DNA from: Thermodesulfobacteriota bacterium
GTDB lineage: Bacteria; Desulfobacterota; Desulfarculia; JACQYL01
NCBI GenBank assembly: GCA_963675595.2
Contig: CAXXLZ010000002.1
Span: 768,001 to 832,000, forward strand
DNA length: 64,000 nucleotides
Direction of reading: 5' to 3'
The notes below the pieces were generated by a model that did not search any database, was not told where the DNA came from, and worked only from the letters and a program-made list of their open reading frames with translations. Of this stretch, positions 1,915 through 17,988 are shown piece by piece; the stretch's first letter is position 1; each line of letters opens with the position of its first letter. Made by a program: the position numbers and the translations under genes.

Positions 1915-3213
1915 TCAGCTCTTGAGTTGTATGGCGGTCTGAAGCATCTCGTTACTGGTTGAAACCACGGTGGAATTGGCGTTGAACCCCGTCTGTGTCA
2001 CGATGAGGCGAACGAGTTCGTTTGCCAAATTAACATTGGACGCCTCAAGACTGAATTGAAGGATGGACCCTCGCCGACCGCTGTCCGCCGTACCCACGGT
2101 GGCCTCGCCCGCAGCCGGCGTAGAGCGAAACAGGGTGTCGCCCGCTTTTTCAAGCCCGTCGTTGCTCACAAACGTGGTTACCGCCACCCGACCTACGCTG
2201 GAAAGATTCGGGTTGTCGTTATCATAGAGCGTGTAAACGGTTCCGTCCTGTCCCACGGTGATTTCCTGAAGTTCTCCCGTCCCATAGCCGTCCTGATTCA
2301 GTTCCTCCAGCAATGGAGGCAAGGTCGACGAAATGATCTCATTGGTGGCGAAGCTCGTGGGATCGTTCGGATCCAATAAGGACCAAGTCAAATTGTATAC
2401 CTGATCGTCCACGGTGAGATCGAAGGTGACGTCCTCAACATTCCCCGCTTCCCCGACTCCGGTCAACGCCCCATCCGTGAAGAAGAAATCGAAAGCCGCC
2501 TCACCCTCGTCCAACGTGGCATCCGTTGAGGTTGGTACGTTGAGATTGGAGACGGCTCCTTCCCCGGGACTAAGTATGACACGCCAGGATGTATCCCCGT
2601 TGGCTGTTCCTTCATTGATCTGGAAATTGATGCCGAGACCGGTGATCCGGTCCACAATGTCGCCGTACACGTCCAAATCAACAGCGGGAGATTGACCGGT
2701 ATCGAAGTTCAGGCGAAGGCCGCTCACGGAAAATTCCGTGGTCTGCTTGCTCAATTGAGTAAACTCCACCTGCAGGTTGCTTAGTTCCTCCTCGAAATCT
2801 CCGGTATCGGGATTGAAGGCGAACCCCTGGACTTTCATATCGGACTGATTAATCAGGACACCTTCATCGTCCAGCAAAAACGATCCGTTTCGGGTGTAAA
2901 AGGTGCGATCCGAATCGTCTTTAACGGTGAAAAAGCCGTCACCGTTAATAGCGAGGTCCGTGCCGTTGTCCGTTTGCGAAAGGGGGCCCTCAAGAAATAC
3001 GGTCTGGAAGGATTGAACCATGCTGCCCGCACCGGTGACGGAAGCGGCTACATTCTGCTTGGTCCGTTGCGCACCGTCCAAGATGTCCGCGAAGTTGCTC
3101 CGCTCGTATTTGAACCCCGTGGTTCCCACATTCGCCACGTTATTGCCGATAACGTCAAGGTCTTTTCCGAACGTATCCAACCCGGTGAATCCCGTCCAGA
3201 TCGAAGAAATCAT
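1915..3213 (-). CDS. flgE: Flagellar hook/basal-body protein FlgE-type, inverted relative to its neighbours
   Basis: N-terminal GLDTFGKDLDVIGNNVANVGTTGFK, DLAINGDGFF, YTRNGSF, C-terminal LEASNVNLANELVRLIVTQTGFNANS; ATG at 3213 preceded by a GAGAGGAG RBS. Confidence 0.85.
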   Translation of the reverse strand: MISSIWTGFTGLDTFGKDLDVIGNNVANVGTTGFKYERSNFADILDGAQRTKQNVAASVTGAGSMVQSFQTVFLEGPLSQTDNGTDLAINGDGFFTVKDDSDRTFYTRNGSFLLDDEGVLINQSDMKVQGFAFNPDTGDFEEELSNLQVEFTQLSKQTTEFSVSGLRLNFDTGQSPAVDLDVYGDIVDRITGLGINFQINEGTANGDTSWRVILSPGEGAVSNLNVPTSTDATLDEGEAAFDFFFTDGALTGVGEAGNVEDVTFDLTVDDQVYNLTWSLLDPNDPTSFATNEIISSTLPPLLEELNQDGYGTGELQEITVGQDGTVYTLYDNDNPNLSSVGRVAVTTFVSNDGLEKAGDTLFRSTPAAGEATVGTADSGRRGSILQFSLEASNVNLANELVRLIVTQTGFNANSTVVSTSNEMLQTAIQLKS

Positions 3214-3339
3214 CCCGGACTCCTCTCTCGATTTCGCCAAGCACGAATGCCTGCGAACACACCAAACACCACTCCGCCGAAGGTGAGAAGAACCACGACG
3301 CTCATTCGTCCTTCGGCGAGTTTGCCGTTCTCCTTACTC

Positions 3340-3355
3340 AGCAACATCCATGCCG
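3340..3355 (-). promoter_or_regulatory. Putative sigma54 promoter for the flgE-type gene
   Basis: Minus strand CGGCATGGATGTTGCT, GG-N10-GC spacing of -24/-12. Confidence 0.6.
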
Positions 3356-3695
3356 GGATTTTGACGGTTTGTTAAGCCGTTGAAGTCAAACGGCCGCACT
3401 ACTCCAACGCCTCACCCACATCACGTTCTTTCCGACGGGGGAAGCCTTCCCCCTCAAGCCTGAACGGCCGGCGACAGAGCCTTCAAATCGGCCGTGGTCA
3501 TCCGCTTCCTCGTCGAGAAGGGTGTGGCGCAAACAGGACTTTTGACTCCCGCACCTGTTTGGTGCCCCCGATCACGGTAGGCAAATTGTGCTGAATGGGC
3601 AGGATGTACCTGCCGCATGGAGACCGGCAGGCCCTCCGGAAGCCTTCTTTTCAGCGGCCGAGCTCCGGGTCCCCTGCCCTTTGGGCCCTATCCAA

Positions 3696-3711
3696 TGGCA
3701 CGCTACTTGCT
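3696..3711 (+). promoter_or_regulatory. Sigma54 promoter for the flgF operon
   Basis: TGGCACGCTACTTGCT matches TGGCAC-N5-TTGCW, about 40 bp upstream of the flgF ATG. Confidence 0.85.
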
Positions 3712-3749
3712 TTTCTATGGGGCGCCACACCTCAACAAGGAGAAACGCT

Positions 3750-4541
3750 ATGGAGCGGTCGGTCGCCGCGATAACCGCCGGCCTGTTTTCTGAAATGAAG
3801 AAACTGGACGTCATCTCGAACAATCTGGCCAATGTGAATACGCCCGGTTTCAAGCGAGACGAAACGTTCAGCGACTGGATGAGCGTCTTTCTGCTCAATG
3901 CCGAAATCAGTCCGGAAACGGCGGCCAAAGATGCCCTGCGCCTTAAGGAACTGCTCGCAAACCAGGATCAGGACGGCACCCTGGTGGATGCCAGAACCAT
4001 CATGGAGGAAGGCGTTTTCGATCACACGGGTGCTCCCCTCGATGTAGCCCTACAGGGAGACGGCTTCTTCACTCTGCAACAGGGGGACCGTGAAATCTAC
4101 ACACGTAGGGGGCGATTCCAGCTGGACGAGCAGGGCACCCTGGTTTCCACCGACGGCTTTCCCGTAATCGGTGAAAATGATCTCCCCATCCGAATCGACC
4201 GGGAAAACCCCACGGCTCCCTACGAGATCCGGATCGATGAGGATGGAACCGTATACAACAACGACAACGCGGTCGGGAGACTTAAGCTGATCGCCCAGCC
4301 CGAAGGAGAGCGGTTCGCCAAGATCGCCCGCACTTCCTTCGTTCTGCGCCCGGGCGTCGAGCCTCCCACGGCCCTGGGACAAGTACTTGTCAAACAAGGC
4401 TACCTTGAGACGAGCAACGTCAGCGTCGTCAAGGAAATGACGGACATGATGAATGCGTACAGGACCTTTGAGAGCTATCAGAAAATAATGACTACCATGG
4501 ACGATCTCAAAGGCCGATTGATCAGTTCCGTCACCGCATAA
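3750..4541 (+). CDS. flgF: Flagellar basal-body rod protein FlgF
   Basis: [49 protein letters not shown]; upstream of flgG; AAGGAG RBS before ATG 3750. Confidence 0.9.
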   Translation: MERSVAAITAGLFSEMKKLDVISNNLANVNTPGFKRDETFSDWMSVFLLNAEISPETAAKDALRLKELLANQDQDGTLVDARTIMEEGVFDHTGAPLDVALQGDGFFTLQQGDREIYTRRGRFQLDEQGTLVSTDGFPVIGENDLPIRIDRENPTAPYEIRIDEDGTVYNNDNAVGRLKLIAQPEGERFAKIARTSFVLRPGVEPPTALGQVLVKQGYLETSNVSVVKEMTDMMNAYRTFESYQKIMTTMDDLKGRLISSVTA

Positions 4542-4566
4542 ATCTTAATTCCAGGGAGGCCTCCTC

Positions 4567-5355
4567 ATGATTCGAACCCTGTTTTCGGCAGCTACCGGAA
4601 TGCAGGCACAGCAGCTGAACATGGACGTCATTTCCAACAACCTGGCCAACGTCAACACCACCGGGTTCAAGAAATCACGCCCGGATTTTCAGGATCTGAT
4701 CTACCAGAACCTGCAGCTGGCCGGGATGCCCAGTTCCACCACCACCCAGGTGCCCGCCGGCATCCAGGTCGGTTTGGGTGTGCGTCCTGCGGCGATCCAG
4801 CGTCTTCATCTGCAGGGAGATTTCATCAAAACCGACAACTCGCTTGACCTTGCAATCTCCGGACAAGGTTTCTTTCAAATCCAACACCCCAACGGAGAAA
4901 CTTTGTATACCCGTTCCGGTGCCTTTAAGCTCAACGCGGACGGACAAGTGGTCAATTCCGACGGATGGATGCTGCTTCCCGAGATCACCATCCCCGAGGA
5001 CGCCGAAGAGATCAACGTGGCCTCCGACGGAACGGTGAGCGTGCGGCAGGGCGGGCAGACGACGGCGACGCAAGTCGGAAACATTGAACTGGTCACCTTC
5101 GCCAATCCCACAGGTCTCGAAAGTGTCGGACGAAATAATTTCCGCCCCACGGACGCTTCCGGAGATCCCATTGCGGGCATACCCGGTGAGAACGGTGTGG
5201 GAGAAATCGAACAAGGATACCTCGAGCTTTCCAACGTATCGGTGGTGGACGAGATGGTGGCCATGATCGTGGCGCAACGCGCCTACGAAGCCAACAGCAA
5301 GGCGGTCCAGACCGGCGACCAGCTTCTGAGCCTCGCCAACGGTCTGAAACGGTAA
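4567..5355 (+). CDS. flgG: Flagellar basal-body rod protein FlgG
   Basis: [47 protein letters not shown]...GIQVGLGV...[11 protein letters not shown]. Confidence 0.97.
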
Positions 5356-5370
5356 CCCGCAAATCCGGAG

Positions 5371-6372
5371 TTGATTGAGCTTATGAAGCCCCGCAATCGT
5401 CATTTACGGACCGTTCTGTGGAGCCTGACCTTGGCGGCCCTGACATTATGGAGCGTCCGGCTCCATGCCGGCTCCCCGCCGGACGCCGGAGTCGAGCTCA
5501 AGCAGGCCGCCGCGGTGACGCATCACCTGGTGCTTCTATCGGACGTTGCCGAGATAACCAGCCTCGATCCTTCTCTAAAGAAGGCGTTGGAAAACTTGGC
5601 CGTGGACGCGTCTCCCGGCCTCTGCAGGGAAGCCCGACTCGATGCCGAAAAAGTGCGGCAAAGGATCACCGACGATTTTCCCAGGCTCCATATTCAGGTT
5701 TCAGGAGCCTCTTCGGTCCAAGTGATCCGCTCATGCCGAACCGTTACGGAATCCGAACTCGAAGAGGCGGGCAAGAAGTACATTTTCTCTCATATGCCCT
5801 GGAAAGAGGAAACGGTCGAAGTGACCGACGTGAGGGTCCCGGAGTTGGTTTTCCCGGACCTGCCGGTCAGCGTGGAATTCTCTGAGTCGACCGGAGAGGA
5901 CTTTCTCGGAAACATCAGCCTGATGGCGCTGATCAAACACAATGGAGAGACGCTTAGGGCCGTGCGATGGACGGGAAGGATTTCCGTGTTCGAAAACGTA
6001 GTCGTGGCTGCGAGGACGCTGGACAGAGACCAGTTGATTACCGCCGATGACGTAACTTTGCGACAAACGGACCTGTCACAACTCCACACCGAGCCCCTCA
6101 GATCGCTGGACGGCCTCGCGGGCAAGCGGGTAATACGTCGAATTCCCGAAGGAAATCTGGTCCGTCACGAAGATTTGGACCGGCCTCTCCTGGTGCAAAG
6201 AGGCGATCGAGTGTTCCTGAAAGCCCAAACCGCCATGATCGAGGTCACGGCCACGGGCGTCGCTCTGGACGATGGAAGCCTCGGAGACGCGGTGAGGGTT
6301 CGGAACCTGTCGTCAAAGAGAGAAATCGTCGGACTCGTTGCCGGCCCCCATTGGGTCAAGGTGGTATTCTGA
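5371..6372 (+). CDS. flgA: Flagellar P-ring formation chaperone FlgA
   Basis: Signal peptide; SAF-type region and C-terminal LVQRGDRV...TATGVALDDGSLGDAVRVRNLSSKREI; position between flgG and flgH. Confidence 0.93.
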   Translation: MIELMKPRNRHLRTVLWSLTLAALTLWSVRLHAGSPPDAGVELKQAAAVTHHLVLLSDVAEITSLDPSLKKALENLAVDASPGLCREARLDAEKVRQRITDDFPRLHIQVSGASSVQVIRSCRTVTESELEEAGKKYIFSHMPWKEETVEVTDVRVPELVFPDLPVSVEFSESTGEDFLGNISLMALIKHNGETLRAVRWTGRISVFENVVVAARTLDRDQLITADDVTLRQTDLSQLHTEPLRSLDGLAGKRVIRRIPEGNLVRHEDLDRPLLVQRGDRVFLKAQTAMIEVTATGVALDDGSLGDAVRVRNLSSKREIVGLVAGPHWVKVVF

Positions 6373-7106
6373 TGAAAAAAAGCGTGTCGGCACAAGCAAC
6401 TTTCCGGAAATGGGGCTTTCTTATTTGCGTTTCTTTGATTCTGACCGCCTCCTGCTCCTCCGAAGATCGGAACCGACGTCGGGATTATTTCGGTCAGGTG
6501 CCGGAGCCCGTGGAAACATTTCCTCAAAAAGAATATCCCGGTTCTTTGTGGAAAGAACGCAACTCGGAGAGTATTCTCTTCATGGATCACAAGGCGGGTC
6601 AGATTAACGACATCGTTACCGTGCTCATTGTGGAAAACTCATCCGGTCAAGGAGTTTCGAACTCCAAGCTGGAGAAGACGTCGGACGTGCAGTTCGGTGT
6701 GGACGGCGCCTTGGGCTTGCCCAGTTCCCTCGGCATGAACAATTTCCTGGGATTGGGCTCTCCGTTCCAGCCTTCGGTGTCGGCGGAAACCACCAATGAT
6801 TTTGAAGGAAAAGCAAGAACTACCAGGACGGGAAGCCTCAGCGGCACCATCACCTGCCGCGTAGTCAAACTATTTCCCAACGGGAACCTCGAGATTCGCG
6901 GTTCCCGCGAAATCACCATCAATCGTGAACAGCAGTTCATCATGCTGAGCGGAGTCATCCGTCAGGAAGACATTGATTCGCTCAACGTGGTTCGATCGGA
7001 CCGTATCGCGGATGCGCGAATTGAATACTACGGTGAAGGGGTTCTCGCGGACAAGGAGACCCCGGGGTGGCTCGCCCGTGTACTGGATTGGGTGTGGCCG
7101 TTTTAG
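6372..7106 (+). CDS. flgH: Flagellar L-ring lipoprotein FlgH
   Basis: Lipobox LTASC; GSLW...DHKAGQINDIVTVLIVE; LFPNGNLEIRGSREITIN...SDRIADARIEYYGEG...PGWL...WPF; ATG overlaps the flgA stop. Confidence 0.96.
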   Translation: MKKSVSAQATFRKWGFLICVSLILTASCSSEDRNRRRDYFGQVPEPVETFPQKEYPGSLWKERNSESILFMDHKAGQINDIVTVLIVENSSGQGVSNSKLEKTSDVQFGVDGALGLPSSLGMNNFLGLGSPFQPSVSAETTNDFEGKARTTRTGSLSGTITCRVVKLFPNGNLEIRGSREITINREQQFIMLSGVIRQEDIDSLNVVRSDRIADARIEYYGEGVLADKETPGWLARVLDWVWPF

Positions 7107-7134
7107 GATTGAACTGAAGAGAGTGTGCCTATCC

Positions 7135-7566
7135 ATGAAAAAGATTTCGAGGAGTGAATTTGTAAGCCTATGGGCGGTCATGCTGAGCGCCGTCCTCCTG
7201 TTCGCACTTTCGGGATGCGGCGGCGGAGCCACGGGTTCCGAGGGGAACGACGGGCAAGACACTTTGAGGCTCACCGTGGTCCCGGACCGGATCAATATCA
7301 GTGATGGGGGCAGTTGCTCGGTGAACGTCACCCTGTGGGACGCGAACGCGGAACCAATCATCGGTACGGTGTACTTGGCTTCGACCTTCGGGACGCTGGG
7401 CGCGTCCTCCGTCACCACGGTGGCCGATCCCGGCGGGACCGCTGCAAGCGCCGCCACCACATTGACTCCCAGCGACACCACCACTGTGGGCAACGCCGTG
7501 GTCACCGCCACTTTCGGTTCCATCACGGTTTGGGTATCGGTTGAATTCTACAAGACCCTCGGCTGA
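7135..7566 (+). CDS. Small lipoprotein with a single Big_1/invasin-like Ig domain
   Basis: Lipobox LSGC followed by GGG; LTVVPDRI..DGGS.CSVNVTLWDANAEPI...AVVTATFGS pattern typical of bacterial Ig-like domains. Confidence 0.7.
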   Translation: MKKISRSEFVSLWAVMLSAVLLFALSGCGGGATGSEGNDGQDTLRLTVVPDRINISDGGSCSVNVTLWDANAEPIIGTVYLASTFGTLGASSVTTVADPGGTAASAATTLTPSDTTTVGNAVVTATFGSITVWVSVEFYKTLG

Positions 7567-7587
7567 GAACGGTTGGAGGAACCTTCC

Positions 7588-9012
7588 ATGAAGCGATGCA
7601 ACACCGAACACCTGTTCTTCCTGATTCTGATCTTGAGCATTTCCGCATTGGGCTGCAGTGGAGGCGGAGGCGGATCCACCTCCGTGGTGACTCCCCAGGG
7701 CCCCCAGATCAATCCTCCCGAGGTCACCCTGTACTTCGGAGACGAGATACTCCTCAGCGTTTCGGGCGGAGCAGCCCCTTACACCTGGTCGTCCACCAAT
7801 CTCACTGTAGGCAAAGTGGATCCGGACCGAATCTCCACCGACGGACGTTCCGCCTATTTCGTTGCCAATACCAAGTTGCCCGAAGAGACGACCGACAACA
7901 TGACGGCCACGGTTATCGCCATGGACGCCAACGGCAGATCGGCTCAGGCCACCATCACCATGATTCTGAACCTTCTTCTGGTGACCCCCGGTCAAGCCAC
8001 CATCGCCCTGGACTCTCTGACCACTCCGAGCATCCGCTTCTCCGTCACCGGAGGAGAGTCCCCTTATTATTGGACGGCGGATAAGCCCTACCTGGCTGAT
8101 CTTTATCCGAACGGCGACGGTTCCATCGTAACCGTGTTTCCCACGCAGGCCGGCATTCTGAGTCTGACCGTCACGGACTCGCGGAATACTCAGTCCCCGG
8201 ACGGCGTCACGTTGACGATCGTCGACGAAGCGCCCGGCATCACCCCCTCCATGATCACCCTATCGTCGGAAACGGACGCCGGGGCATACACATTCCTGTT
8301 TTCCGGGGGTACGCAACCCTATGTTCTCTACACGTCGGACCCGAATATTCTCGATGTTCCACAAATTGCTCAAGACGCCACATCCGCGGATGTGACCGCC
8401 CTACAGGTGGGAGAGGCCGATTTGATTCTGGAGGACGCCACGGGCCAGAAGGCGGTGGCCTCCGTGACCGTGACCGATTTGCAGGATACGATCACCATCA
8501 GTCCCTCCCTGGCCGTGATCAGTCCCGGGGATTACGTTACCTTCCAAGCGCTCCACGGGCTCAGTCCCTATTACTGGACCAATGAGAACCCTGAGCTGGG
8601 TCAGTTGTTTACCAGCGGCACGGGAGACAGGGTGGCTGATTTTTATGCCGGGAACGACGCCGGTGTGGCTTCCATCGTTCTGGAAGACAGCCGACAAGCC
8701 CAGTCGGTGGCTCGCATTACCATTGAAGACGCACTCCGGATTCTTCCCGGCTTGGTGACCACTCAGCAGGGCACGGCTCAAGCCCTGAGCTTCATCGTTC
8801 AGGGCGGAGTACCGCCTTATTCCGCCTTCCTCAGCGACTACAGGTTCGGCACCGTAACTCAGCCGACGCTTAATACGGATCGTAATCAGTACGAATTCAC
8901 CGTGACCACCTCGGCCTCGGCCGCTGCCATGACTTGGCAAGACATCGTGGAAGTGTACGACGTGGGAGGCTTGAAGGCCACCTTGGACGTCGAGGTGGTC
9001 GCCGCAAACTAA
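7588..9012 (+). CDS. Lipoprotein with 5 tandem Ig-like repeats
   Basis: Lipobox ALGC-SGGGGG; five repeats of about 85 aa with an xP..(S/T)GG..PY.W...D core; GGAGGA RBS. Confidence 0.75.
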   Translation: MKRCNTEHLFFLILILSISALGCSGGGGGSTSVVTPQGPQINPPEVTLYFGDEILLSVSGGAAPYTWSSTNLTVGKVDPDRISTDGRSAYFVANTKLPEETTDNMTATVIAMDANGRSAQATITMILNLLLVTPGQATIALDSLTTPSIRFSVTGGESPYYWTADKPYLADLYPNGDGSIVTVFPTQAGILSLTVTDSRNTQSPDGVTLTIVDEAPGITPSMITLSSETDAGAYTFLFSGGTQPYVLYTSDPNILDVPQIAQDATSADVTALQVGEADLILEDATGQKAVASVTVTDLQDTITISPSLAVISPGDYVTFQALHGLSPYYWTNENPELGQLFTSGTGDRVADFYAGNDAGVASIVLEDSRQAQSVARITIEDALRILPGLVTTQQGTAQALSFIVQGGVPPYSAFLSDYRFGTVTQPTLNTDRNQYEFTVTTSASAAAMTWQDIVEVYDVGGLKATLDVEVVAAN

Positions 9013-9080
9013 AACAGCGTTGCATTCATCTTCCGGGGAACCTGCTCCGGAGCACGTGAGACTACAAATCGGGGGAGAAA

Positions 9081-11246
9081 ATGAAAAGAAGGACCTTTGG
9101 TTTCGCCATCTTGTCGGTTATGTTCCTGCTCATCGCCGGATGCAGCGGAGGAGGTGGGTCGGACTCCGAGCCCACCCAGCCTCCAACGCAGAAACTCGTC
9201 ATTTATTCTCCCAACGGTCTGTCCCTCTTTTACGGTGAGGAACTCAAACTCAGCGTAAGCGGCGGCACTCCGCTCTACCAGTGGTCCCTGAGAAGCTCCG
9301 GTGATCAGACCTGGACCCAGATCGATGACAACCGGACCGCACCGGACGGATCGGTCATCTACGTTACCGCTTCGGACTATCTTTGGGGCATTGGTCCCAC
9401 GGTCGAGGTGGTGATCACCGTGACCGACAGCATCGGAAATTGGGGTACCATCACGGTGCAGGTCACGGACATGTTTCCAAGCGTGATTCCGGCCAAAGCG
9501 ACGGTGCCCCTGGACGTGGCTTCGGCCACGACGATGCGCTTTACGGCGTCCGGAGGGACGCCCCCCTACTACTGGGTCCTCGATAAACCCTACTTGGCGC
9601 AGGGCGTTCCCGACAGTGAGGGGGACACCTTGATCCTCCAGCCGGTGGCTTCGGGAAACCTGAAGATCACCCTGTTCGACGCCAAGAACCTGGCTTCCTC
9701 GGCCACTCTGCAAATCGTATCGGGCACGCCCAAAATCGTACCCAACAAAGTGACGCTCAGTCTCGGGGAATCCATCACGTTGAGGGCCAGCAACGGAACA
9801 CCTCCCTACTACGACTGGTATCTCACGGACCCCTCCGTGGGGACTCTGGACCCTCCGTCCGGCGGGTGGGGAGACCTTTCCGAAGCGGTCTTCACCGCCA
9901 GGAGAATCGGCAACACCGAAGTGTACCTCGACGACGATTTGGGTGAACGCGCGTACGCCACGGTGACCGTGATCCAGAACCAGACCATGCTCACACCCAG
10001 CGAAGCCAATATCGCTCCCGGAGAGGAGCTTATCCTGACGGCCAAGTACGGCCTCACCCCTTACTACTTCTTCAACGGCGACCAGAACGTGGGCGAGTTG
10101 ACCGAACTTTCCTACAACCAGGTTTTGTTTGAAGCCAAAGATGCGGGCATCACCGTCATCAGGGTGGAGGACAGCAGAGGCCAGGAAGACACTTGCACGA
10201 TTATGGTCAGCAACGCCTTTCAGATTTATCCCTTGAGCTTAAAGGGAAGCCCGGGTGAGGTGGTCAAATTCTTCCTGTATGGCGGTCAGACACCCTACGA
10301 CGTGCTCGTAAACGACGTGTCCGTTGGCTCGGCCGTGATCAAGAACGGCAACGAGGTGCATTTCACCATTGCGGCCTCACAGAATCCCGAGGACACCGCC
10401 TATCCGGACGTCGTCGAGGTTTACGACGCAGATGGGCTCAGGGCGACCGCCGAAGTGGTAGTGGCGGGCGTGGGATGCGAACTTCACGCGGAACCGTCCA
10501 CTGCGATCGGCAATCCCGGCGACGAGGTGGAATTCCTGGTGCTCTGCGGTACCGGAGATTCCTACAGCGTGACCACCATGGACGCCACTCTGGTGGAAAC
10601 CCCGATACAGCAGCCCACCGGCAACTTGGTGACCGTCACCATCAAGTCCAACGCCGTACCCGGTCTATATCCGGAGGTGATCCGTATCGCGGACGAAGAA
10701 AACAATGTGATCTACGCCGGTATCGAAGTCGTCGAAAAGCTGGCGGTAACCCCGTCCTCCGCATCGGGCGCTCCCAACGAAGAGCTGCAGTTCGTCGTGT
10801 CCGGAGGAAAAGCCCCCTACACCGCCCAGCTTTCGAGTAATACGTCGGCAACGGCGTCGGTAAGCGGAAGCGTGATCACTCTAAAGATTGCCAACAGCCC
10901 GACCTCCAACAGCCTCAGCATGATCGTACAGGACGCCGCCGGCCAGATCGTCTCCGTGCCCGTAACCATCACAAACCCGACCTGCACTTTTGAGCTGAGT
11001 CCCAGCTCGCAGACCGGAACTGCGGGTAACACCCTGGCGTACCAGGCGGTTTGCGGCACCTCCCCGTATCTGGCCACCATTCTGAATTTCACGGCCATCG
11101 ATTCGAGTGTGGACGCCATTTCAATCACGGGAAACCTGGTGACGGTCAAGATATCCGGCACCGCGGCACCCGGCACCTACTCCAACGCCTTTGTGATCAC
11201 CGATGCCAATGCTCAGTCGGCTTTCGGCAGCATCGTGGTCCAGTAG
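9081..11246 (+). CDS. Lipoprotein with 8 tandem Ig-like repeats, paralog of the upstream gene
   Basis: Lipobox IAGC-SGGGG; eight repeats (SGGTPLYQW, SGGTPPYYW, SNGTPPYY, YGLTPYY, YGGQTPY, LCGTGDSY, SGGKAPY, VCGTSPY); GGGGAG RBS. Confidence 0.75.
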   Translation: MKRRTFGFAILSVMFLLIAGCSGGGGSDSEPTQPPTQKLVIYSPNGLSLFYGEELKLSVSGGTPLYQWSLRSSGDQTWTQIDDNRTAPDGSVIYVTASDYLWGIGPTVEVVITVTDSIGNWGTITVQVTDMFPSVIPAKATVPLDVASATTMRFTASGGTPPYYWVLDKPYLAQGVPDSEGDTLILQPVASGNLKITLFDAKNLASSATLQIVSGTPKIVPNKVTLSLGESITLRASNGTPPYYDWYLTDPSVGTLDPPSGGWGDLSEAVFTARRIGNTEVYLDDDLGERAYATVTVIQNQTMLTPSEANIAPGEELILTAKYGLTPYYFFNGDQNVGELTELSYNQVLFEAKDAGITVIRVEDSRGQEDTCTIMVSNAFQIYPLSLKGSPGEVVKFFLYGGQTPYDVLVNDVSVGSAVIKNGNEVHFTIAASQNPEDTAYPDVVEVYDADGLRATAEVVVAGVGCELHAEPSTAIGNPGDEVEFLVLCGTGDSYSVTTMDATLVETPIQQPTGNLVTVTIKSNAVPGLYPEVIRIADEENNVIYAGIEVVEKLAVTPSSASGAPNEELQFVVSGGKAPYTAQLSSNTSATASVSGSVITLKIANSPTSNSLSMIVQDAAGQIVSVPVTITNPTCTFELSPSSQTGTAGNTLAYQAVCGTSPYLATILNFTAIDSSVDAISITGNLVTVKISGTAAPGTYSNAFVITDANAQSAFGSIVVQ

Positions 11247-11262
11247 AACCGAATGAATACAC

Positions 11263-11294
11263 GGGACGTCCGAATACCGGTTTTCGGACGTCCC
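11263..11294. repeat. Perfect 12-bp inverted repeat (intercistronic hairpin without a U-tract)
   Basis: GGGACGTCCGAA-N8-TTCGGACGTCCC. Confidence 0.7.
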
Positions 11295-11393
11295 ACACAC
11301 AAGGCATAGTCCGGACCGCGTCGCCATTTTCCTTAACGCCTTATGGGTAACGGCGACGGCTCGGATCCGGGCGTCATATCAAGGAAGCGCCTC

Positions 11394-12524
11394 ATGACGT
11401 TTAGAGCCGGCTCGAAATCGCAACGACTGGGATTTGCGGTCTACACCGTTCTCCTGCTGCTGTTTTTCTGCGGCTCGATATCCAATGCGGCGGAGGTCCG
11501 CCTGAAGGACATCGCCCACTTCGAAGGATTCCGTCCGAACCAGTTGATCGGCTACGGCGTAATCGTCGGACTCGACGGCACCGGAGACGGAACCCGGGGG
11601 GGATTTACGCGTCAAATCTTATCCAACATGATGTACAAGTTGGGCGTCACCATCCCCGCCAGCGCCATCCAAGTGAAAAATACGGCCACCGTCATGGTCA
11701 CCGCCGAGCTTCCCCCCTTTGCCAAGGCCGGGACCCGGATCGACGCCGTGGTCTCTTCTCTGGCGGATGCAAAAAGTCTACAGGGAGGCACGTTGTTGAT
11801 GACGCCCTTGCGGGCGGCGAGTCGCGAGATCTATGCCGTAGCCCAGGGGCCGGTTTCCATCGGCGGTTTCGGAGCGGCCGGCGGCGGAGCAACGGTTCAA
11901 CAGAACCATTTGACTGTCGGTGTTGCGGTCAACGGGGCTCTCATCGAAAGAGATTTGCCTTTGAACCTCCCGGGACGCGTGCTGAAGCTCCACTTGTATC
12001 ACCCGGACTTCACCACGGCGCACCGGACTGCGGAAAGCATCAACAAGCACTTTCAGACCGACATGTCCACCGCCGTCGATCCCAGCGAAATCCGCATCAG
12101 CGTTCCCGAGGAGTTCCATGAAAACATCGTGGAGTTCATTTACCAGGTTGAAAACGTCAAAGTGGAACCCGACACCCGTGCCGTGGTGGTTATGAACGAG
12201 AGAACCGGAACGGTGGTCATGGGAGAAAACGTCCGGGTTTCCACGGTGGCCGTGGCCCACGGGAACCTCAACATCGTGATTCGAGAGACCCCGGAAGTCT
12301 CGCAGCCCGAGCCTTTCAGCGAAGGCACCACGGTGGTGGTTCCTCGGACCGATATCTATGTCACCGAGGACAACAACAAGTTGCTCTTGGTGCCCGAAGG
12401 GGTCACCATCGGTGACGTTGTCCGAGCGCTGAACGCCATCGGAGTCACTCCACGGGATCTCATCTCCGTCATCGTAGCCCTCAAAGAGGCCGGAGCGCTC
12501 CAGGCGGACCTGAAATTCCTCTAA
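11394..12524 (+). CDS. flgI: Flagellar P-ring protein FlgI
   Basis: RLKDIA...NQLIGYGVIVGLDGTGD; AELPPFAKAG; DAKSLQGGTLLMTPL; NERTGTVVMG; ALKEAGALQADL (alternative start 11343). Confidence 0.97.
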   Translation: MTFRAGSKSQRLGFAVYTVLLLLFFCGSISNAAEVRLKDIAHFEGFRPNQLIGYGVIVGLDGTGDGTRGGFTRQILSNMMYKLGVTIPASAIQVKNTATVMVTAELPPFAKAGTRIDAVVSSLADAKSLQGGTLLMTPLRAASREIYAVAQGPVSIGGFGAAGGGATVQQNHLTVGVAVNGALIERDLPLNLPGRVLKLHLYHPDFTTAHRTAESINKHFQTDMSTAVDPSEIRISVPEEFHENIVEFIYQVENVKVEPDTRAVVVMNERTGTVVMGENVRVSTVAVAHGNLNIVIRETPEVSQPEPFSEGTTVVVPRTDIYVTEDNNKLLLVPEGVTIGDVVRALNAIGVTPRDLISVIVALKEAGALQADLKFL

Positions 12525-12553
12525 CCCGATGATGCGAAAGGCGGGTTTCCCGC

Positions 12554-12907
12554 ATGTCCTACGATTTCTTGTTGCATTTTAGCCCCGAAGCGGCAAAGAT
12601 GAGTGAAGGTGGAGAGTCGGCGGCTCTGAAAAAGGCCTGTCAGGAGTTCGAGTCCTTTTTTTGGGAAATACTCCTCAAAGAGATGCGCAAGACCGTACCG
12701 GAAGGCGGCCTCCTTGGGAATTCCCTGGAAAACGATCTTTACACTTCCATGTATCACCAGGAGCTTTCCGTGGAATTGAGCCGACGTGGCGGCCTCGGAC
12801 TAACGGAACTGCTCGAGGGAAGCCTGGAAGGCACCCTTGAAAAGCACGACGGGGGTGCGGACGAGTCCGAGGAAGAAGAAACCGTCGGGTCGGAAACAAT
12901 TAGATGA
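12554..12907 (+). CDS. flgJ: Rod-binding FlgJ, single domain with no muramidase part
   Basis: LKKACQEFESFFWEILLKEMRKTVPEGGLLG...YTSMYHQELS...GGLGL; follows flgI. Confidence 0.88.
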   Translation: MSYDFLLHFSPEAAKMSEGGESAALKKACQEFESFFWEILLKEMRKTVPEGGLLGNSLENDLYTSMYHQELSVELSRRGGLGLTELLEGSLEGTLEKHDGGADESEEEETVGSETIR

Positions 12908-13011
12908 CCCCCGACTGCTTCCAGTAGGACGGCCATCCTGAACGGGAGATTCTACGACTGGAGAAAAATATTCCGGCTTTGGCGGAATTGCTTTAATTTT
13001 TCGTGAGAGGC

Positions 13012-13038
13012 TAAAGTTCCACGTGCCGCTGCCGATTC
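13012..13038 (+). promoter_or_regulatory. Sigma28 (FliA) promoter for flgM
   Basis: TAAA-N15-GCCGATTC. Confidence 0.85.
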
Positions 13039-13074
13039 ACTGGATGAAAAGTCCGAAAGGAGGCGTTCCAAAGG

Positions 13075-13392
13075 ATGAAAATCGACGACACCATAATCCA
13101 GCAGACGGATGTGTTAAAACAACAGGTCCGGTCGTCGGAGACGGGAAAGAACCAGGAACAGCCGGGCGGCGAGCGTATCGCCCCGTCTCCTGACATCGAA
13201 GAAAACGTGGAAATCTCTAGCAGAGCTCAAGAGAGACGGTCGGCTCGCGATGCGTTGAGTTCCGTGCCGGAAGTCCGCGCCCAAAAAGTCGCGGAGGTCC
13301 GCAAGAAGATCGAGGAGGGTACCTACGAGGTGAACAGCGGCAAAATCGCAGAAAAACTCATCCGGGAGTCCCTGTTCCATAACATCGCCTGA
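13075..13392 (+). CDS. flgM: Anti-sigma28 factor FlgM
   Basis: VEISSRAQE...PEVRAQKVAEVRKKIEEGTYEVNSGKIAEKLI. Confidence 0.93.
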   Translation: MKIDDTIIQQTDVLKQQVRSSETGKNQEQPGGERIAPSPDIEENVEISSRAQERRSARDALSSVPEVRAQKVAEVRKKIEEGTYEVNSGKIAEKLIRESLFHNIA

Positions 13393-13599
13393 TCCAATAT
13401 CTCCTCCGTCTTCAGTCCGCCAAACAATTCCAATCGCCTGCAACCGCTCATGGATGAGCGGTTCTTCCTTCACAATCTCCTGTACCCACTACCCCACTTT
13501 TTCGGCATGTGTGCGAGCTAGAGCCTTCATGTCCGGTAAGACCCGAGGGATACCGGAAGGCGGAAGTGGTCGCTTCCCGAGGCATTTGTCGTTTCGGGA

Positions 13600-16500
13600 T
13601 CACTGAGGCTCGGAAACCCGGAAATTCTTCTCCAACCGTCCTTTCCGTGCCTTGACGGCTGTAATGACAGTGAGCATGAACTCGGCGATGTCGAAATCCG
13701 GCGGTACGACCGTGACCGTCGTCCAGTTAACGGTATTCCCGCATTGGTTCCTCAATTCAATGGTGTAATCCGTGGTTTCCGATGGATACACCGCGACCGA
13801 ACCACCCGTCGGTGACACCTGGCCGACTCCGGGACTTATGATCGCCTCATCCCCGCCCGTTCCGCTCCAGGACAGAACCGCACCGTTTCCCGCTACCACA
13901 TCCCCGCCGGGACCGGAAAAGAAGTCGATGACCGGCAGATCGCAGGTCAAGACTTCGATGGAGGCCTGTACGTCTCCGCATGAACTCTCAACCACCAATG
14001 TATAGGTTTCCGGCGCCGACGCCTCCAGTGATACGACCCCGACCCCCGGGTCCACCTGCCCCACTCCGGGTGATATTTCGGCGAGTTCTCCTCCTATGGC
14101 GACCCAGTCCAACTGGAAAACGGTTCCGGTGGGCACGGGGTCGGAGGGCCCTTGAAAAACCACGATTTCGGGCGGATCGCAGGCGTCCAATATCGGCGGG
14201 TCGTCCGGTTCCGACGTCGAGGGATTGGCCATGCCGGAAGCCTGGTACTCGACCAGTGCATCCACTACATGCTCACCTACCTCTCCTTCGGGCACATGCA
14301 CCACGAAAACCGCCTCCAGCGGGCTGGACAATACTTTGGACGTCCAGAATATCCCTTTGGACGGGTTCACTGTGTTGATTCCCGTGCCGGAAACGCTTTC
14401 GAGGGTCCACCCGTCGGGTAGAAGCGGTTTCCAAAGAATGGAAAGGAGCGGATCCTGAAAGGAGGCGCGAAAGGTGAAGGTCACCTCACGGCCCGGAGGA
14501 TACGTGTCGGGACCTTCGATGGAAATCGAAGGAGTGCTCTGCGGCGTTAAGGGAGGACCCGACAGGGCGACGTCGGGCTGTGGTATCAACGGAGCGAAAC
14601 CGTCCACCCCCGAAGCATCGGGCTGATACCCTCCCGCGCGCCAGTAGGCAAGCACTCGATTGATCTCCGTGCCGTCGATATCCCAGGCCGGCGCTTGAAA
14701 ATCCGCGGTATGAGTCCCGCAGGCCGTTGCTCCTACGGTTCCCGGCTGATATCCGTCGGGTCCGGCCCCGCAACGGTACGCTCCGGCATTCCAGTAAGAA
14801 ATCACACGGGTCACTTCCGCATTGTCGATGATGAAGTCGGGCCCGTTGTAATCCGCATCGTGGTAAATAGGTGTTTCCGCCAACACGAGGGGGTCCGGAA
14901 GAGCGACGTCCACGGAAGGCAAAGCCATTCCCACCAATTGAAAGTCGATGGTCGATCCGATGTTTTGAGCCCCGGTCTGTCCTCCGGGAACGGCGACTTG
15001 GTATTCGAACACCACTGGATTGTTCGCAACGGGAGGCGTAAAAGTAACCACTCCTCCCAAGACCACCGGATTTCCATTCCCGGCCGCCGCCGTCACCCCG
15101 GTGAGGGTCCATCCCGCGGGCAACACGGGCGTCCACTGTAGGGATTGAATCGTCAGTCCGGCTTGATAGCTGAATTCACACGCCACAACCGCCGTGCCTG
15201 GAGACGGGTAACCGGCCGAAGAGTGGACCGAAGCCGTCGCATAAGTAATTTCCGGAAGTTGCAGCGGGTGGGGATTCGCCCACGTAAGCGCGGGATTTAC
15301 CATGCCGTCGATTTGGTACTCCACCTCCGCGCTAAGGTAATGGGTGCCGGATTCACCGCCCGGGACGTTGACGATATACGTAAACTGCACCGGATTCCCG
15401 GAGAAGGCATCCAGAAAGACGATTTCCCCTCCGCTCACCTGAGGGTTTCCATCGCCCGAAGCCCCCACCGGATCCAAGGTCCAACCGGCGGGTAATTGCG
15501 GTCTCCAAAGAAGCGAAAGCAGGCTCCTCCCCTGGGGTACCTGAAACGTGCAGGTGATCACGGCGGTGCCGGGAGTTTCATATCCGGGCGAGGAATGTGC
15601 GGCCGCGATCCCTGGAGGATACCCGCAGGTCTTGAAAAGGAACACGTCGCTTTGACCGTTGGCGTCTCCCGAAACCAGGTTTCCGGCGGAAGAACCGAAC
15701 ACCATGTGAAGTCCGTCGCTCGCCATGGACGGATAAAGCGAAGCACCGTCAGGCTCTCCCAACGTTGAAGAGGCGCTCACTCGAGACGTTTCACCGGTTT
15801 GACGATCCCGAACGAACACATCCCATTTTTCGTTGGTATCACCGGGCAACAGATTGGTCGATCCCGACGAGAACACCACGTAGCGGCCGTCGGAGGACAT
15901 GGATCGCCTTCTGGAACCCCTGCTCTCCCCGTTCCCCTCGGAACCGTCGTAGGCCAAGCTCACTCGCTCGGTGATCCCGGTTTGAAGGTCTTTCAGAAAT
16001 ACGTCGGCTTTGCCGTTGGCATCTCCGACCGTCAGGTTGGAAGCATTGGAATAGAACACCACGTAGCGACCGTCCAGGGACAGGGAGGGGTATTCCGAGA
16101 ACCCTCCGGCCTGTCCTCCCGCGGAAGAGACGGAAACACGGACGGTTTGCGCGGTACTGCGGTCGTGCACGAAGACGTCCGCAGAGCCGTTGGTGTCCCC
16201 CGCCACCAAATTCGTGGCCTCGGAGACAAAAGCCACGTAGCGGCCGTCCGCGGATAGCGAGGGAAACCTGCATGCGCCGTTTCCCTGGACTCCGATCGAT
16301 GAAACGCTCACTCGCGTCGTCTGGGCGAGAAGCAGATCACGAACGAATACATCGGACTTGGTGTTTGTGTCGCCGGGAACCAGATTGGAAGCCGCGGACG
16401 TGAAAGCCACGTAACGGCCGTCCGAGGAGACCGACGGCTGAAAGGAAGCCTGGTTGCCCTGCCCGCCTGCGTCGGTCAGACTGACCCGAACAGTGACGGC

Positions 16501-17865
16501 GGTTTGCCGGTCATGCAGGAATACGTCACTGTGACCGTTATCGTCCACGGCCACCAGATTGGTCGCTTCCGAAGTGAACGCGACGTATCGGCCGTCCGGT
16601 GAAAGGTCGGGATCCGAGCTTTGATCGTTCCCCTGAACCCCGGCGGAAGATACGCTGACTCGGGTCACCGCGGCGGTTTCCATATCCCGCACGTAGACGT
16701 CCGTGCCGGCGGCTCCCGCAACCAAGTCTGCGGCATTGGAGGAAAATGCCACGTAACGCCCGTCCGCAGACACCACGGGAGAACCGCTTCCTCCGTCGGC
16801 GGCAGCACCGCTCGCGGCCACACTCACCGCCTGGATTTCCGAGGCGCACGCCGGTCCCAGACTTCTGAAGGCGCCGTCACCCTCCGTGCCTGCAAACACC
16901 TTCGAAGCATCCCAAGGGTCAACGGCCAGAGTCCGAACCGGTACCAGGGGCGTGGGAAGGCCGGCATTGTCTGCGGACCACAGGGCCCCACCGTTGGAAG
17001 TGACAAAAACGCCGCCGCCGTCGGTGCCCGCATACACCACGCCGGGTTGAATGGGGTCCGCCGCGAGAGAATGCACATTCACGTCGGTAAGTCCCGTATT
17101 CACCTGGTTCCAGGTGAGGCCGGCGTCTGTGGACTTATAAATACCCCAGGTGTCGGTCCCGGCGTAAACATTGTTCGAGTCGTGAGGGTCCACCGCCAGG
17201 CAGGTCACGGAGACGGCCGTGCTGATCGGCGTCCAGATCAAACCCGCGTTCGTACTTTTGTAGACTCCGTAGGTTTCGGATCCGGCGTACACGACATTGG
17301 AGTCCGCAGGGTCCACGGCCAAGGCGTAGATATCGGTTAAGGGCAGAGTCAGACCGGTGTTGACGGCATTCCACGACGTCCCGCCGTCCGTACTCTTGAA
17401 GATTCCTTCCCCTTCCGTCCCGGCATAGAGGACCTGATCGTCGCCGGGGTCCTCAGTCAGCGCGAAAACTTGAGGCAAGAAACCCGGAAGCCCCGTATTC
17501 ACGGCGTTCCAGTCCATCCCCCCGTTTACACTTTTGAAAACTCCTCCCGTTTGGGTGCCTGCATACAGAGTGTTGGGCAAGGTGGGAGACACAGCCAGCG
17601 TATGGATGTTGTTGTCCGCCAAGCCGTTGTTCACGGCCGTCCACCAAGTCCCGCCGCTCGAGGAACGAAACACGCCTCCACCCCAGGTGGCGGCGTACAT
17701 CACGGACGGAACATGCGGCTCGGGGATCAGGGACATCACTTCCAGGTCGGTCAAACCTTGGTTAATCGCGACCCAGTCCGCCCGACTCTCCGAGACGAAC
17801 AAGGCAAAACCGGCAAGGAAGCACAACAGTATTGAAAATGGGCGACGTACACGGCGGGTGTTCAT
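13600..17865 (-). CDS. Large secreted multidomain surface protein: BNR/YCF48-like propeller, TolB/PD40 propeller, three beta-sandwich repeats, duplicated dockerin/EF-hand-like module, two Ig-like C-terminal repeats
   Basis: Signal peptide (ESRA|DW); repeated YAGT.GGVFKSTDGG..W..VNTGL; repeated PSLSADGRYVAF.S.A.NLV.GDTN...DVFVRD; LxWxPxLPxGWTL three times; H(D/T)AD...ID..E..RV..YW.AG.Y twice. Confidence 0.8.
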   Translation of the reverse strand: MNTRRVRRPFSILLCFLAGFALFVSESRADWVAINQGLTDLEVMSLIPEPHVPSVMYAATWGGGVFRSSSGGTWWTAVNNGLADNNIHTLAVSPTLPNTLYAGTQTGGVFKSVNGGMDWNAVNTGLPGFLPQVFALTEDPGDDQVLYAGTEGEGIFKSTDGGTSWNAVNTGLTLPLTDIYALAVDPADSNVVYAGSETYGVYKSTNAGLIWTPISTAVSVTCLAVDPHDSNNVYAGTDTWGIYKSTDAGLTWNQVNTGLTDVNVHSLAADPIQPGVVYAGTDGGGVFVTSNGGALWSADNAGLPTPLVPVRTLAVDPWDASKVFAGTEGDGAFRSLGPACASEIQAVSVAASGAAADGGSGSPVVSADGRYVAFSSNAADLVAGAAGTDVYVRDMETAAVTRVSVSSAGVQGNDQSSDPDLSPDGRYVAFTSEATNLVAVDDNGHSDVFLHDRQTAVTVRVSLTDAGGQGNQASFQPSVSSDGRYVAFTSAASNLVPGDTNTKSDVFVRDLLLAQTTRVSVSSIGVQGNGACRFPSLSADGRYVAFVSEATNLVAGDTNGSADVFVHDRSTAQTVRVSVSSAGGQAGGFSEYPSLSLDGRYVVFYSNASNLTVGDANGKADVFLKDLQTGITERVSLAYDGSEGNGESRGSRRRSMSSDGRYVVFSSGSTNLLPGDTNEKWDVFVRDRQTGETSRVSASSTLGEPDGASLYPSMASDGLHMVFGSSAGNLVSGDANGQSDVFLFKTCGYPPGIAAAHSSPGYETPGTAVITCTFQVPQGRSLLSLLWRPQLPAGWTLDPVGASGDGNPQVSGGEIVFLDAFSGNPVQFTYIVNVPGGESGTHYLSAEVEYQIDGMVNPALTWANPHPLQLPEITYATASVHSSAGYPSPGTAVVACEFSYQAGLTIQSLQWTPVLPAGWTLTGVTAAAGNGNPVVLGGVVTFTPPVANNPVVFEYQVAVPGGQTGAQNIGSTIDFQLVGMALPSVDVALPDPLVLAETPIYHDADYNGPDFIIDNAEVTRVISYWNAGAYRCGAGPDGYQPGTVGATACGTHTADFQAPAWDIDGTEINRVLAYWRAGGYQPDASGVDGFAPLIPQPDVALSGPPLTPQSTPSISIEGPDTYPPGREVTFTFRASFQDPLLSILWKPLLPDGWTLESVSGTGINTVNPSKGIFWTSKVLSSPLEAVFVVHVPEGEVGEHVVDALVEYQASGMANPSTSEPDDPPILDACDPPEIVVFQGPSDPVPTGTVFQLDWVAIGGELAEISPGVGQVDPGVGVVSLEASAPETYTLVVESSCGDVQASIEVLTCDLPVIDFFSGPGGDVVAGNGAVLSWSGTGGDEAIISPGVGQVSPTGGSVAVYPSETTDYTIELRNQCGNTVNWTTVTVVPPDFDIAEFMLTVITAVKARKGRLEKNFRVSEPQ

Positions 17866-17988
17866 GGTCTTCTCCACACCATGAAGTATCGGTCGGATGC
17901 TTCGAGAGGTTGAGGAGAATCCTCGGCCGGATCGGAAGCAACGAACTTGCGGGCCGTACACACCGGCCCTCCATACGGCAACCCGGCA

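Follow-up and report, generated by a model that had tools for sequence, protein, structure and literature searches.

The 64 kb window analysed here (the whole stretch of 64,000 nucleotides, positions 768,001 to 832,000 of contig CAXXLZ010000002.1) comes from a Thermodesulfobacteriota bacterium and contains a flagellar operon in which three putative lipoprotein genes, named LP1, LP2 and LP3, lie between flgH and flgI, the genes for the L ring and the P ring (together the LP ring). The gene order on the + strand is flgF-flgG-flgA-flgH-LP1-LP2-LP3-flgI-flgJ-flgM (Table 1), with the flagellar genes called by Pfam and NCBIfam well above cut-off. LP1 to LP3 are co-oriented with flgH and with each other, and the gaps flgH/LP1, LP1/LP2 and LP2/LP3 measure 28, 21 and 68 bp; open reading frame (ORF) coordinates and the domain-called neighbours agree on this arrangement, which had been described in the original prediction made from the letters of the window. 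A check for recurrence, proposed at the same time, found homologs between flgH and flgI in every relative of the window's order that has flagellar genes, and in family f29.

The GC content is even across the borders of the LP genes (0.57-0.62, without a composition shift), and neither promoter-like sites (2, against 3.1 in shuffled sequences) nor terminator-like sites (12, against 11.5) are in excess in the LP region. Flanking repeats and insertion sequence scars were looked for around the three genes and none were found, and an Rfam scan of positions 3000-14000 at E <= 1 gave no match. A shared strand, short gaps, the lack of a promoter or terminator excess and a gene order conserved in relatives thus mark LP1, LP2 and LP3 as predicted operon members, with the caveat that a hairpin stands between LP3 and flgI. 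Its stem arms are GGGACGTCCGAA and TTCGGACGTCCC, separated by an 8-nt loop, and its folding energy is -30 kcal/mol (z -2.6). The borders had been described as clean; this was borne out for composition, insertion sequence scars and promoter or terminator excess, but given the hairpin it holds for canonical terminators only. We considered the hairpin as a dispersed repeat and rejected this, as the 6.8 Mb genome holds a single copy. Possible roles are in RNA processing or stability, or as an attenuator by which the flgI:LP ratio is set.

The sigma-54 motif expected at flgF is the sole exact match to TGGCAC-N5-TTGC in the window, and an exact motif likewise lies just 5' of flgF in the loci L011/L016 and L037. 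The longest flgF ORF (from GTG 3588) overlaps the motif; because orthologs align only from residue 55 of this long ORF, ATG 3750 is probably the true start and GTG 3588 too early. For flgI, the start is probably ATG 11394, which has an AGGAAG ribosome site and is followed by a signal peptide, rather than 11343. Downstream, a 1453-residue ORF with PD40 and sortilin-type beta-propeller repeats (13600-17961, - strand) converges on flgM, so the operon ends at flgM, without flgN, flgK or flgL downstream.

Table 1. Coordinates of the operon features in the window, and of the related gene pair in genus g43
Feature	Position	Strand	Basis or remark
Sigma-54 type -24/-12 promoter motif, TGGCACGCTACTTGC	3696-3710	+	40 nt 5' of flgF ATG 3750
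flgF, proximal rod	3750..4541	+	Pfam Flg_bbr_C, LlgE_F_G_D1, Flg_bb_rod
flgG, distal rod	4567..5355	+	TIGR02488, 375 bits, above cut-off
flgA, P-ring chaperone	5371..6372	+	ChapFlgA, 113 bits; TIGR03170
flgH, L-ring lipoprotein, lipobox LTASC	6372..7106	+	PF02107, 189.5 bits
LP1, putative lipoprotein of 143 residues, one Big_1-type (intimin/invasin-type) immunoglobulin-like domain	7135..7566	+	translation, family alignments A1/A4, AlphaFold2, Foldseek
LP2, putative lipoprotein of 474 residues, five immunoglobulin-like domains	7588..9012	+	translation, alignment A2, AlphaFold2, repeat hidden Markov model
LP3, putative lipoprotein of 721 residues, eight immunoglobulin-like domains	9081..11246	+	translation, repeat hidden Markov model, BiPBP_C
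Hairpin, perfect 12-bp stem, no T tract	11263..11294	+	between LP3 and flgI
flgI, P ring	11394..12524	+	PF02119, 454 bits
flgJ, rod-binding domain only	12554..12907	+	PF10135, 52 bits
flgM, anti-sigma-28 factor	13075..13392	+	PF04316, 68 bits; TIGR03824
Detached LP1-like and LP2-like pair of g43	L033 4755-5348; L034 10830-11418		also G102, G179

Predicted lipid anchors and immunoglobulin-like domains of the three proteins

The N-termini of LP1, LP2 and LP3 each consist of a basic n-region and a hydrophobic core followed by a lipobox (LSGC, ALGC and IAGC, respectively), after which comes a Gly-rich linker (GGG/SGGGGG). Lipoboxes, linkers and +2 residues (G, S and S) read in the translations as first noted from the sequence. 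FlgH also has S at +2; the rule by which an Asp at this position governs sorting is one for E. coli. Family alignments show an invariant lipobox Cys in A1 (11 rows; C28), A2 (11 rows; C23) and A4 (12 rows). By sequence and alignment all three are thus predicted bacterial lipoproteins, substrates of signal peptidase II.

LP1 itself matches no Pfam family even at E <= 10 and does not reach the 34.9-bit gathering score of Big_1 (PF02369). Relatives of LP1 do reach the Big_1 cut-off (P0006 with 44.5 bits, the G115 homolog with 52.3 bits) and that of Invasin_D3. The AlphaFold2 model of LP1 is a single beta-sandwich with a predicted local distance difference test score (pLDDT) of 83.5, for which Foldseek ranks intimin, InvD and InvE highest (probability 1.00, best E 2.7e-4); comparison of the A1 profile with PDB sequences likewise retrieves intimin, at 3.2e-5, as well as invasin. 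Model, structural matches and PDB profile therefore agree on a beta-sandwich of the intimin/invasin type. The family alignment is marked by the motif PD(R/Q/K)(I/L)N and by a C-terminal VEFY-TL, which reads VEFYKTL in LP1. The family is small: a word-indexed search of 5.8 billion proteins yielded 8 relatives of LP1, and an LP1 profile run against 185,579 species genomes gave only two records, corresponding to G002 and G003.

LP2 and LP3 are built differently. A repeat hidden Markov model (HMM) identifies five copies in LP2, eight in LP3 and none in LP1, which has a different type of immunoglobulin (Ig) domain; together with the single sandwich modelled for LP1 and the five modelled for LP2, this matches the estimate of about 1, 5 and 8 domains made by eye. 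Each of the five LP2 domains carries a GGxxPYxW motif. In the AlphaFold2 model of LP2 (pLDDT 80.7), a disordered Gly/Ser linker (residues 21-36) precedes five beta-sandwiches, and the low predicted template-modelling score (pTM 0.34) is as expected for a model of the beads-on-a-string kind. The repeats of both proteins score with BiPBP_C, Ig_NUP210_9th and Big_2. LP3 exceeds the 26.8-bit BiPBP_C cut-off with 35 bits while LP2, at 22.7 bits, falls below it; the LP3 score and the repeated sandwiches of the LP2 model place both among BiPBP_C/Big_2-like repeat proteins. LP2 and LP3 are each other's sole paralogs in the genome, at 34% identity. By fold, LP2 matches Ig chains of a generic sort (NUP210, cadherins, titin, S-layer proteins). 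In LP3, domains 6 and 8 each contain one Cys pair (GCELH...LVLCG, residues 466-552, and TCTFE...AVCG, residues 636-721). For P0034 and the seven-domain LP3 orthologs in G001 and G002, the alignment covers only LP3 residues 1-631, so the eighth domain was added in the lineage of the window.

Proteins of similar build are found in other metagenomes. P0145, P0146, P0174, P0181, P0124, P0094, P0098 and P0183, the last from a metagenome-assembled genome (MAG) of Burkholderiaceae, are putative lipoproteins of 459-709 residues with an xxAC/GC lipobox, a GGGG linker and GGxxPY Ig repeats. Several of them end in a Cys-rich C-terminus, which is not seen in P0146 or P0098.

Distribution of the module and contiguity of flgH and flgI

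The window's order was sampled with five species genomes, four of which carry LP1. LP1 lies directly 3' of flgH in all seven close-homolog loci outside the window (L010, L011, L013, L016, L017, L018 and L019), a set that includes near-duplicates (L011 and L016), and wherever the contig continues, an LP2-type gene comes next, followed by flgI. The full order flgH-LP1-LP2-LP3-flgI is found in G001, and also in G002, where it runs across a contig break that is bridged by the metagenome contig L016. G003 and contig L019, both loci of the f2 type, have flgH-LP1-LP2like-flgI, with the last LP gene stopping 10-14 bp before flgI. Two short contigs show one arrangement each, flgH-LP1 in L017 and flgH-LP1-LP2like in L018. 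The sole genome of the order without LP1 or LP3 is G004, which is 71% complete and also lacks FlgH, FlgI and FlhA. Identity to the G001 and G002 proteins is 62-64% for LP1 and 54-57% for LP2 and LP3, compared with 55-57% for FlgF, 52-56% for FlgM and 41-42% for FlgA. By this measure the three proteins are under sequence constraint similar to that on the flagellar proteins FlgF and FlgM.

We compared this arrangement with the spacing of the two ring genes in the class, using 95 genomes, of which 78 have both flgH and flgI and 75 have them on the same contig; gaps were measured from domain to domain. The genes lie no more than 978 bp apart in 72 of the 75 pairs, with a median gap of 114 bp. Gaps exceeding 1 kb occur only in G000, G001 and G003, all of them LP-bearing, while the G002 pair is split over two contigs. 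For the phylum, the best 150 match rows of each search gave 101 genomes with both coordinates and 93 same-contig pairs; among the matches listed, 92 of these 93 pairs are at most 322 bp apart, the exception being the LP-bearing G115. The premise that flgH and flgI are normally adjacent is therefore sound for both samples. Also among the matches listed, flgH and flgI are on different contigs in eight genomes, seven of which belong to genus g100.

Two observations concern ring genes at other spacings. All seven g100 genomes (G236, G295, G324, G351, G378, G449 and G472) have flgH and flgI on different contigs, and the genus seems, from these contigs, to have separated its two ring genes. Domain gaps of 250-980 bp are common in family f3; no LP-like ORF is present in the gaps of the five f3 loci fetched (L038-L041 and L043, from G056, G057, G049, G028 and G060), and in some of these loci the gap is taken up by long N-terminal extensions of the flgI ORF, while in one it holds a 79-residue ORF.

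Beyond the order, an LP2 search of 401 phylum genomes gave distant matches only in genus g43 (family f16, four of four genomes) and in G115 (family f29). A wider LP1 profile gave strong matches (E < 1e-43) in the phylum sample only in the window's genome, the four g43 genomes and the two f29 genomes. In family f29, which is outside the class, both genomes examined have LP1-like and LP2-like lipoprotein genes between flgH and flgI, the module consisting of a small Big_1 lipoprotein and then a Big_2/BiPBP_C repeat lipoprotein. G155 has the order flgA-flgH, a lipoprotein of 135 residues, one of 666 residues and flgI. In G115, flgH is followed by a Big_1 protein of 195 residues, Big_2/BiPBP_C pieces of 137 and 210 residues and flgI; the two pieces may be one gene broken by a TAA stop inside the match. 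Profile comparison by hhalign relates the f29 proteins to LP1 with a probability of 96.6-97% (C-terminal FY motif included) and to LP2 with 99.7%, at about 25% identity.

Genus g43 has three LP genes in total, as in the window, but spread over two loci. An LP2/3-type lipoprotein of 687-720 residues (LLACGGGG; probability 99.9%) is encoded directly before flgI in G143 and G212. In G143 its other side is flanked by flgH, whereas the G212 contig begins inside the LP gene and leaves flgH out of view. We considered this insert as a fusion of LP1 and LP2, and rejected it with an LP1 domain probability of 4.9%. All four genomes also have, at a separate locus, a pair made up of an LP1-like gene (45% identity) and an LP2-like gene; an exact TGGCAC-N5-TTGC(T), the promoter type of flgF, precedes the pair on the correct strand by about 135-145 nt. 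The only flagellar-like neighbour of this pair is a sub-threshold FliT/FlgN-like ORF about 1.3 kb away. For g43, the predicted recurrence thus stands for the LP2/3-type gene before flgI (after flgH in one of two genomes), but not for the LP1/LP2-like pair, which is away from flagellar genes.

The relationship between the LP-bearing lineages was analysed with a tree of concatenated FlgH and FlgI (IQ-TREE 'quick', 542 columns, 48 chosen rows of which 8 are LP-bearing). In it, g43 comes out as the sister group of the window's order, with a Shimodaira-Hasegawa-like approximate likelihood ratio test (SH-aLRT) value of 94; the order lies in the same poorly resolved group as f29, and the other families of the class (f3-f8) fall in the opposite half of the tree. 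The LP label requires 2 changes (1 being possible) against a shuffled mean of 7.6, and none of 500 shuffles was as low. Judged from this gene tree, the LP module follows the ring genes rather than taxonomy, which suggests either a transfer of the flagellar cluster together with the LP module or a disagreement between gene tree and taxonomy.

Interpretation of the LP module

What the analysis shows is the order of the genes, their domain architecture and conservation, inheritance alongside flgH and flgI, and the sigma-54 motifs. The recurrence of homologs between flgH and flgI, the otherwise contiguous gene pair and the lack of a FlgP, FlgT or FlgO match support a flagellum-linked function, and to judge by position and promoter motif the module is kept at, or regulated like, the ring-gene locus across deep divergence. 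The reading we favour, to which we give about an even chance, is that LP1, LP2 and LP3 form a lineage-specific structural accessory of the LP ring, periplasmic or outer-membrane, static and beneath the outer membrane. The three proteins would be produced together with FlgA, FlgH and FlgI from the sigma-54 flgF operon, exported by Sec and lipid-anchored. The acylated N-terminal Cys of each would tether it to a membrane through the flexible Gly-rich linker, from which a rigid Ig domain (LP1) or a chain of five or eight such domains (LP2 and LP3) would reach into the periplasm, and the proteins would come together at the LP ring or around it, below the outer membrane, in the form of a ring, disk, cage or spokes. 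Co-transcription, export, lipidation, the membrane that holds the proteins, contact with the LP ring and an effect on the motor are what we infer for the three proteins from their genes.

Several observations weigh against a structural role in the motor, and a number of them favour instead that the LP proteins are co-regulated with flagella but act outside the motor, as a surface or outer-membrane adhesin, in surface sensing, or in sheath or envelope protection. Adhesins and surface layers are another typical setting of Ig-repeat lipoproteins, and Ig chains behind a lipid anchor are the usual build of such proteins; the best fold matches, given above, are intimin and invasin for LP1 and cadherins, titin, S-layer proteins and NUP210 for LP2. 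The LP2/LP3 repeat is widespread, with 472 cluster representatives at E <= 1e-3, many in giant repeat proteins of 1000-7000 residues, and lipoproteins of LP2/LP3-like build occur as far away as the Burkholderiaceae MAG (P0183). The g43 pair stands apart from the flagellar cluster, with Era, a cupin, a peptidase S9 and a DUF4389 protein encoded next to it, but still behind a sigma-54 motif, and sigma-54 promoters are common and not flagellum-specific. The LP-bearing lineages are related through their flagellar genes, so the three are not independent replicates. The LP2 gene of G001 (L010 9726-11038) is split by a frame change that parts the signal peptide and the first half of domain 1 from the remainder, and about 40 residues are missing; an intact close relative is known (P0013), and the split reflects either a pseudogene or an error of MAG assembly within a repeat. 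Finally, a weaker tier of LP1-like matches (E 1e-8 to 1e-11) consists of small lipoproteins away from flgH in f38 and G006 (L084-L087), Big_1 proteins of 129-168 residues with Ser/Gly-rich linkers, which in three f38 loci adjoin a protein of 539-643 residues of no known family. We examined this tier as the same module and rejected it on the four loci, which have no flagellar genes, no sigma-54 motif and, in the neighbouring protein of 539-643 residues, no LP; it is treated here as a different subfamily.

What speaks against a role at the surface outside the motor is the precise and anciently kept position of the module between two ring genes, rather than at the end of the operon, the finding that the close LP1 family never occurs in a searched genome without flgH or flgI, and the low copy number, LP3 matching only LP2 and LP3 in its own genome. 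We regard this alternative as unlikely, although it is the strongest of those considered. The same position, beside flgA and between two ring subunits, would also suit factors that act transiently in assembling the LP ring or in penetration of the outer membrane and are absent from the finished motor, the more so as FlgA, FlgH, FlgI and, by prediction, the LP proteins are all exported by Sec (established for the first three). Most flagellated relatives build LP rings without LP proteins, as seen in the 72 of 75 class pairs and, among matches listed, the 92 of 93 phylum pairs, and chains of five to eight domains with a lipid anchor would suit a static structure better than a chaperone, making such a role improbable. 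Equally hard to credit is that the genes are passengers, an Ig-lipoprotein cassette inserted once into an ancestral flgH-flgI spacer and carried along by linkage. The clustering of LP-bearing lineages on the FlgH and FlgI tree is compatible with a single origin, and the repeat type is promiscuous; against this, the module persists to about 25% identity with intact lipoboxes and domain motifs, its intergenic spacing remains tight, its sequence conservation is comparable to that of FlgF and FlgM, and the relocated g43 pair has retained a sigma-54 motif.

The original prediction had proposed an outer-membrane-anchored spoke, disk or collar of Ig chains around the LP ring, or a flagellum-linked adhesin or sheath component. 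Its flagellar link is supported by genomic recurrence, but a strict reading of it is weakened by the detached g43 pair and by a repeat type common to hundreds of unrelated large repeat proteins. Returning to a structural accessory of the LP ring, we tentatively propose, as a more specific and more doubtful version, that LP1, LP2 and LP3 represent a new kind of motor accessory: a ring, cage or set of spokes made of lipid-tethered Ig chains of one, five and eight beads around the LP ring, unrelated in fold and ancestry to FlgP, FlgT, FlgO and PflA/B, and inherited, possibly transferred, with a ring-gene lineage of Desulfobacterota. If true, this would amount to a new structural way of bracing the LP ring or shielding it, and to an example of accessory genes travelling with ring genes.

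Comparison with known motor accessories

It is mainly the accessories in the periplasm and at the outer membrane that distinguish the flagellar motors of different lineages, and to our knowledge Campylobacterota, Vibrio, spirochaetes and a few other groups account for nearly all accessories that have been characterised. In the excerpts returned by a full-text literature search there is no report of Ig-domain lipoproteins encoded between flgH and flgI, nor of accessories of Desulfobacterota flagellar motors. As their arrangement recurs in distant relatives, the LP proteins probably belong to the flagellar motor, or accompany it, in a way not described before, as a candidate lineage-specific accessory built from unrelated parts. 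The analysis supplies a gene set with clear orthologs, a diagnostic locus (flgH-LP-flgI) and a list of lineages that have or lack LP genes, and makes the motor architecture of these relatives of sulfate reducers a testable question.

In role, though not in ancestry, the LP proteins could be analogous to the FlgP basal disk, the Vibrio H-ring and the Helicobacter FapH ring. In Campylobacter and its relatives, the FlgP/FlgQ basal disk is a lineage-specific periplasmic accessory based on a lipoprotein, located around the LP ring and beneath the outer membrane; FlgP is a member of the LPP20 family (PF02169) and is encoded with flagellar genes. No LPP20 domain was detected in LP1, LP2 or LP3 at E <= 10; instead these are predicted to be Ig beta-sandwich chains, their genes lie between flgH and flgI, and the system is known here from genes. 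FlgT_N and FlgO domains (PF16548, PF17680) were also sought in the three proteins and not found, in keeping with the lack of likeness to FlgP/FlgQ, FlgT and FlgO first judged by eye. Elsewhere in the genome there are weak matches to LPP20 (contig C2 at 3.79 Mb, 3,791,088-3,791,279, just above cut-off, and at 3.25 Mb) and, just above cut-off, to FlgO and FlgT_N (G000 C2, about 2,015,157-2,015,486 and 2,027,774-2,028,031), the latter two 12 kb apart and more than 1 Mb from the window.

As described in the excerpts available, the Vibrio H-ring (FlgT, FlgO and FlgP) comprises outer-membrane-associated rings around the LP ring that are partly lipidated (PMC13521929), from which the LP proteins differ in having no FlgT_N or FlgO match. 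The excerpted description of FapH (HP0838) of Helicobacter pylori is of a lipoprotein whose gene shares its operon with one for a motor accessory; the lipoprotein forms an 18-fold ring close to the outer membrane; this ring is dispensable for swimming and protects the outer membrane's barrier function during rotation (PMC11756786). By analogy, this role is a plausible model for what LP1, LP2 and LP3 might do, although FapH belongs to a different phylum and a different operon and is likened to them by description, not by sequence.

At the level of individual proteins, PDB-wide sequence searches with the LP1 and LP2 profiles matched only intimin, invasin and NUP210 and not a single flagellar chain. 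Complex prediction of mature FlgH (A3, 28-244) with mature LP1 (A1, 28-143) gave a score of 0.00 in two runs without controls, which speaks neither for nor against binding. The small lipoprotein YecR has reportedly been seen bound to the Salmonella L ring, decorating FlgH; the likeness is that of a lipoprotein on FlgH, and the LP1 and LP2 profiles match no flagellar PDB chain. LP1 has the same predicted fold as the Big_1 domains of intimin and invasin, which are adhesins and not flagellar-operon lipoproteins. Similarly, the BiPBP_C/NUP210-type repeats that score with LP2 and LP3 have as their known carriers the tail of PBP1C or a eukaryotic nucleoporin, again not flagellar-operon lipoproteins. 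FlgA, FlgH and FlgI are Sec-exported envelope proteins, and the N-termini of the LP proteins are signal peptides of the same general kind. As an architectural analogy only, the Ig chains of NUP210 form a luminal ring that surrounds a machine embedded in the membrane.

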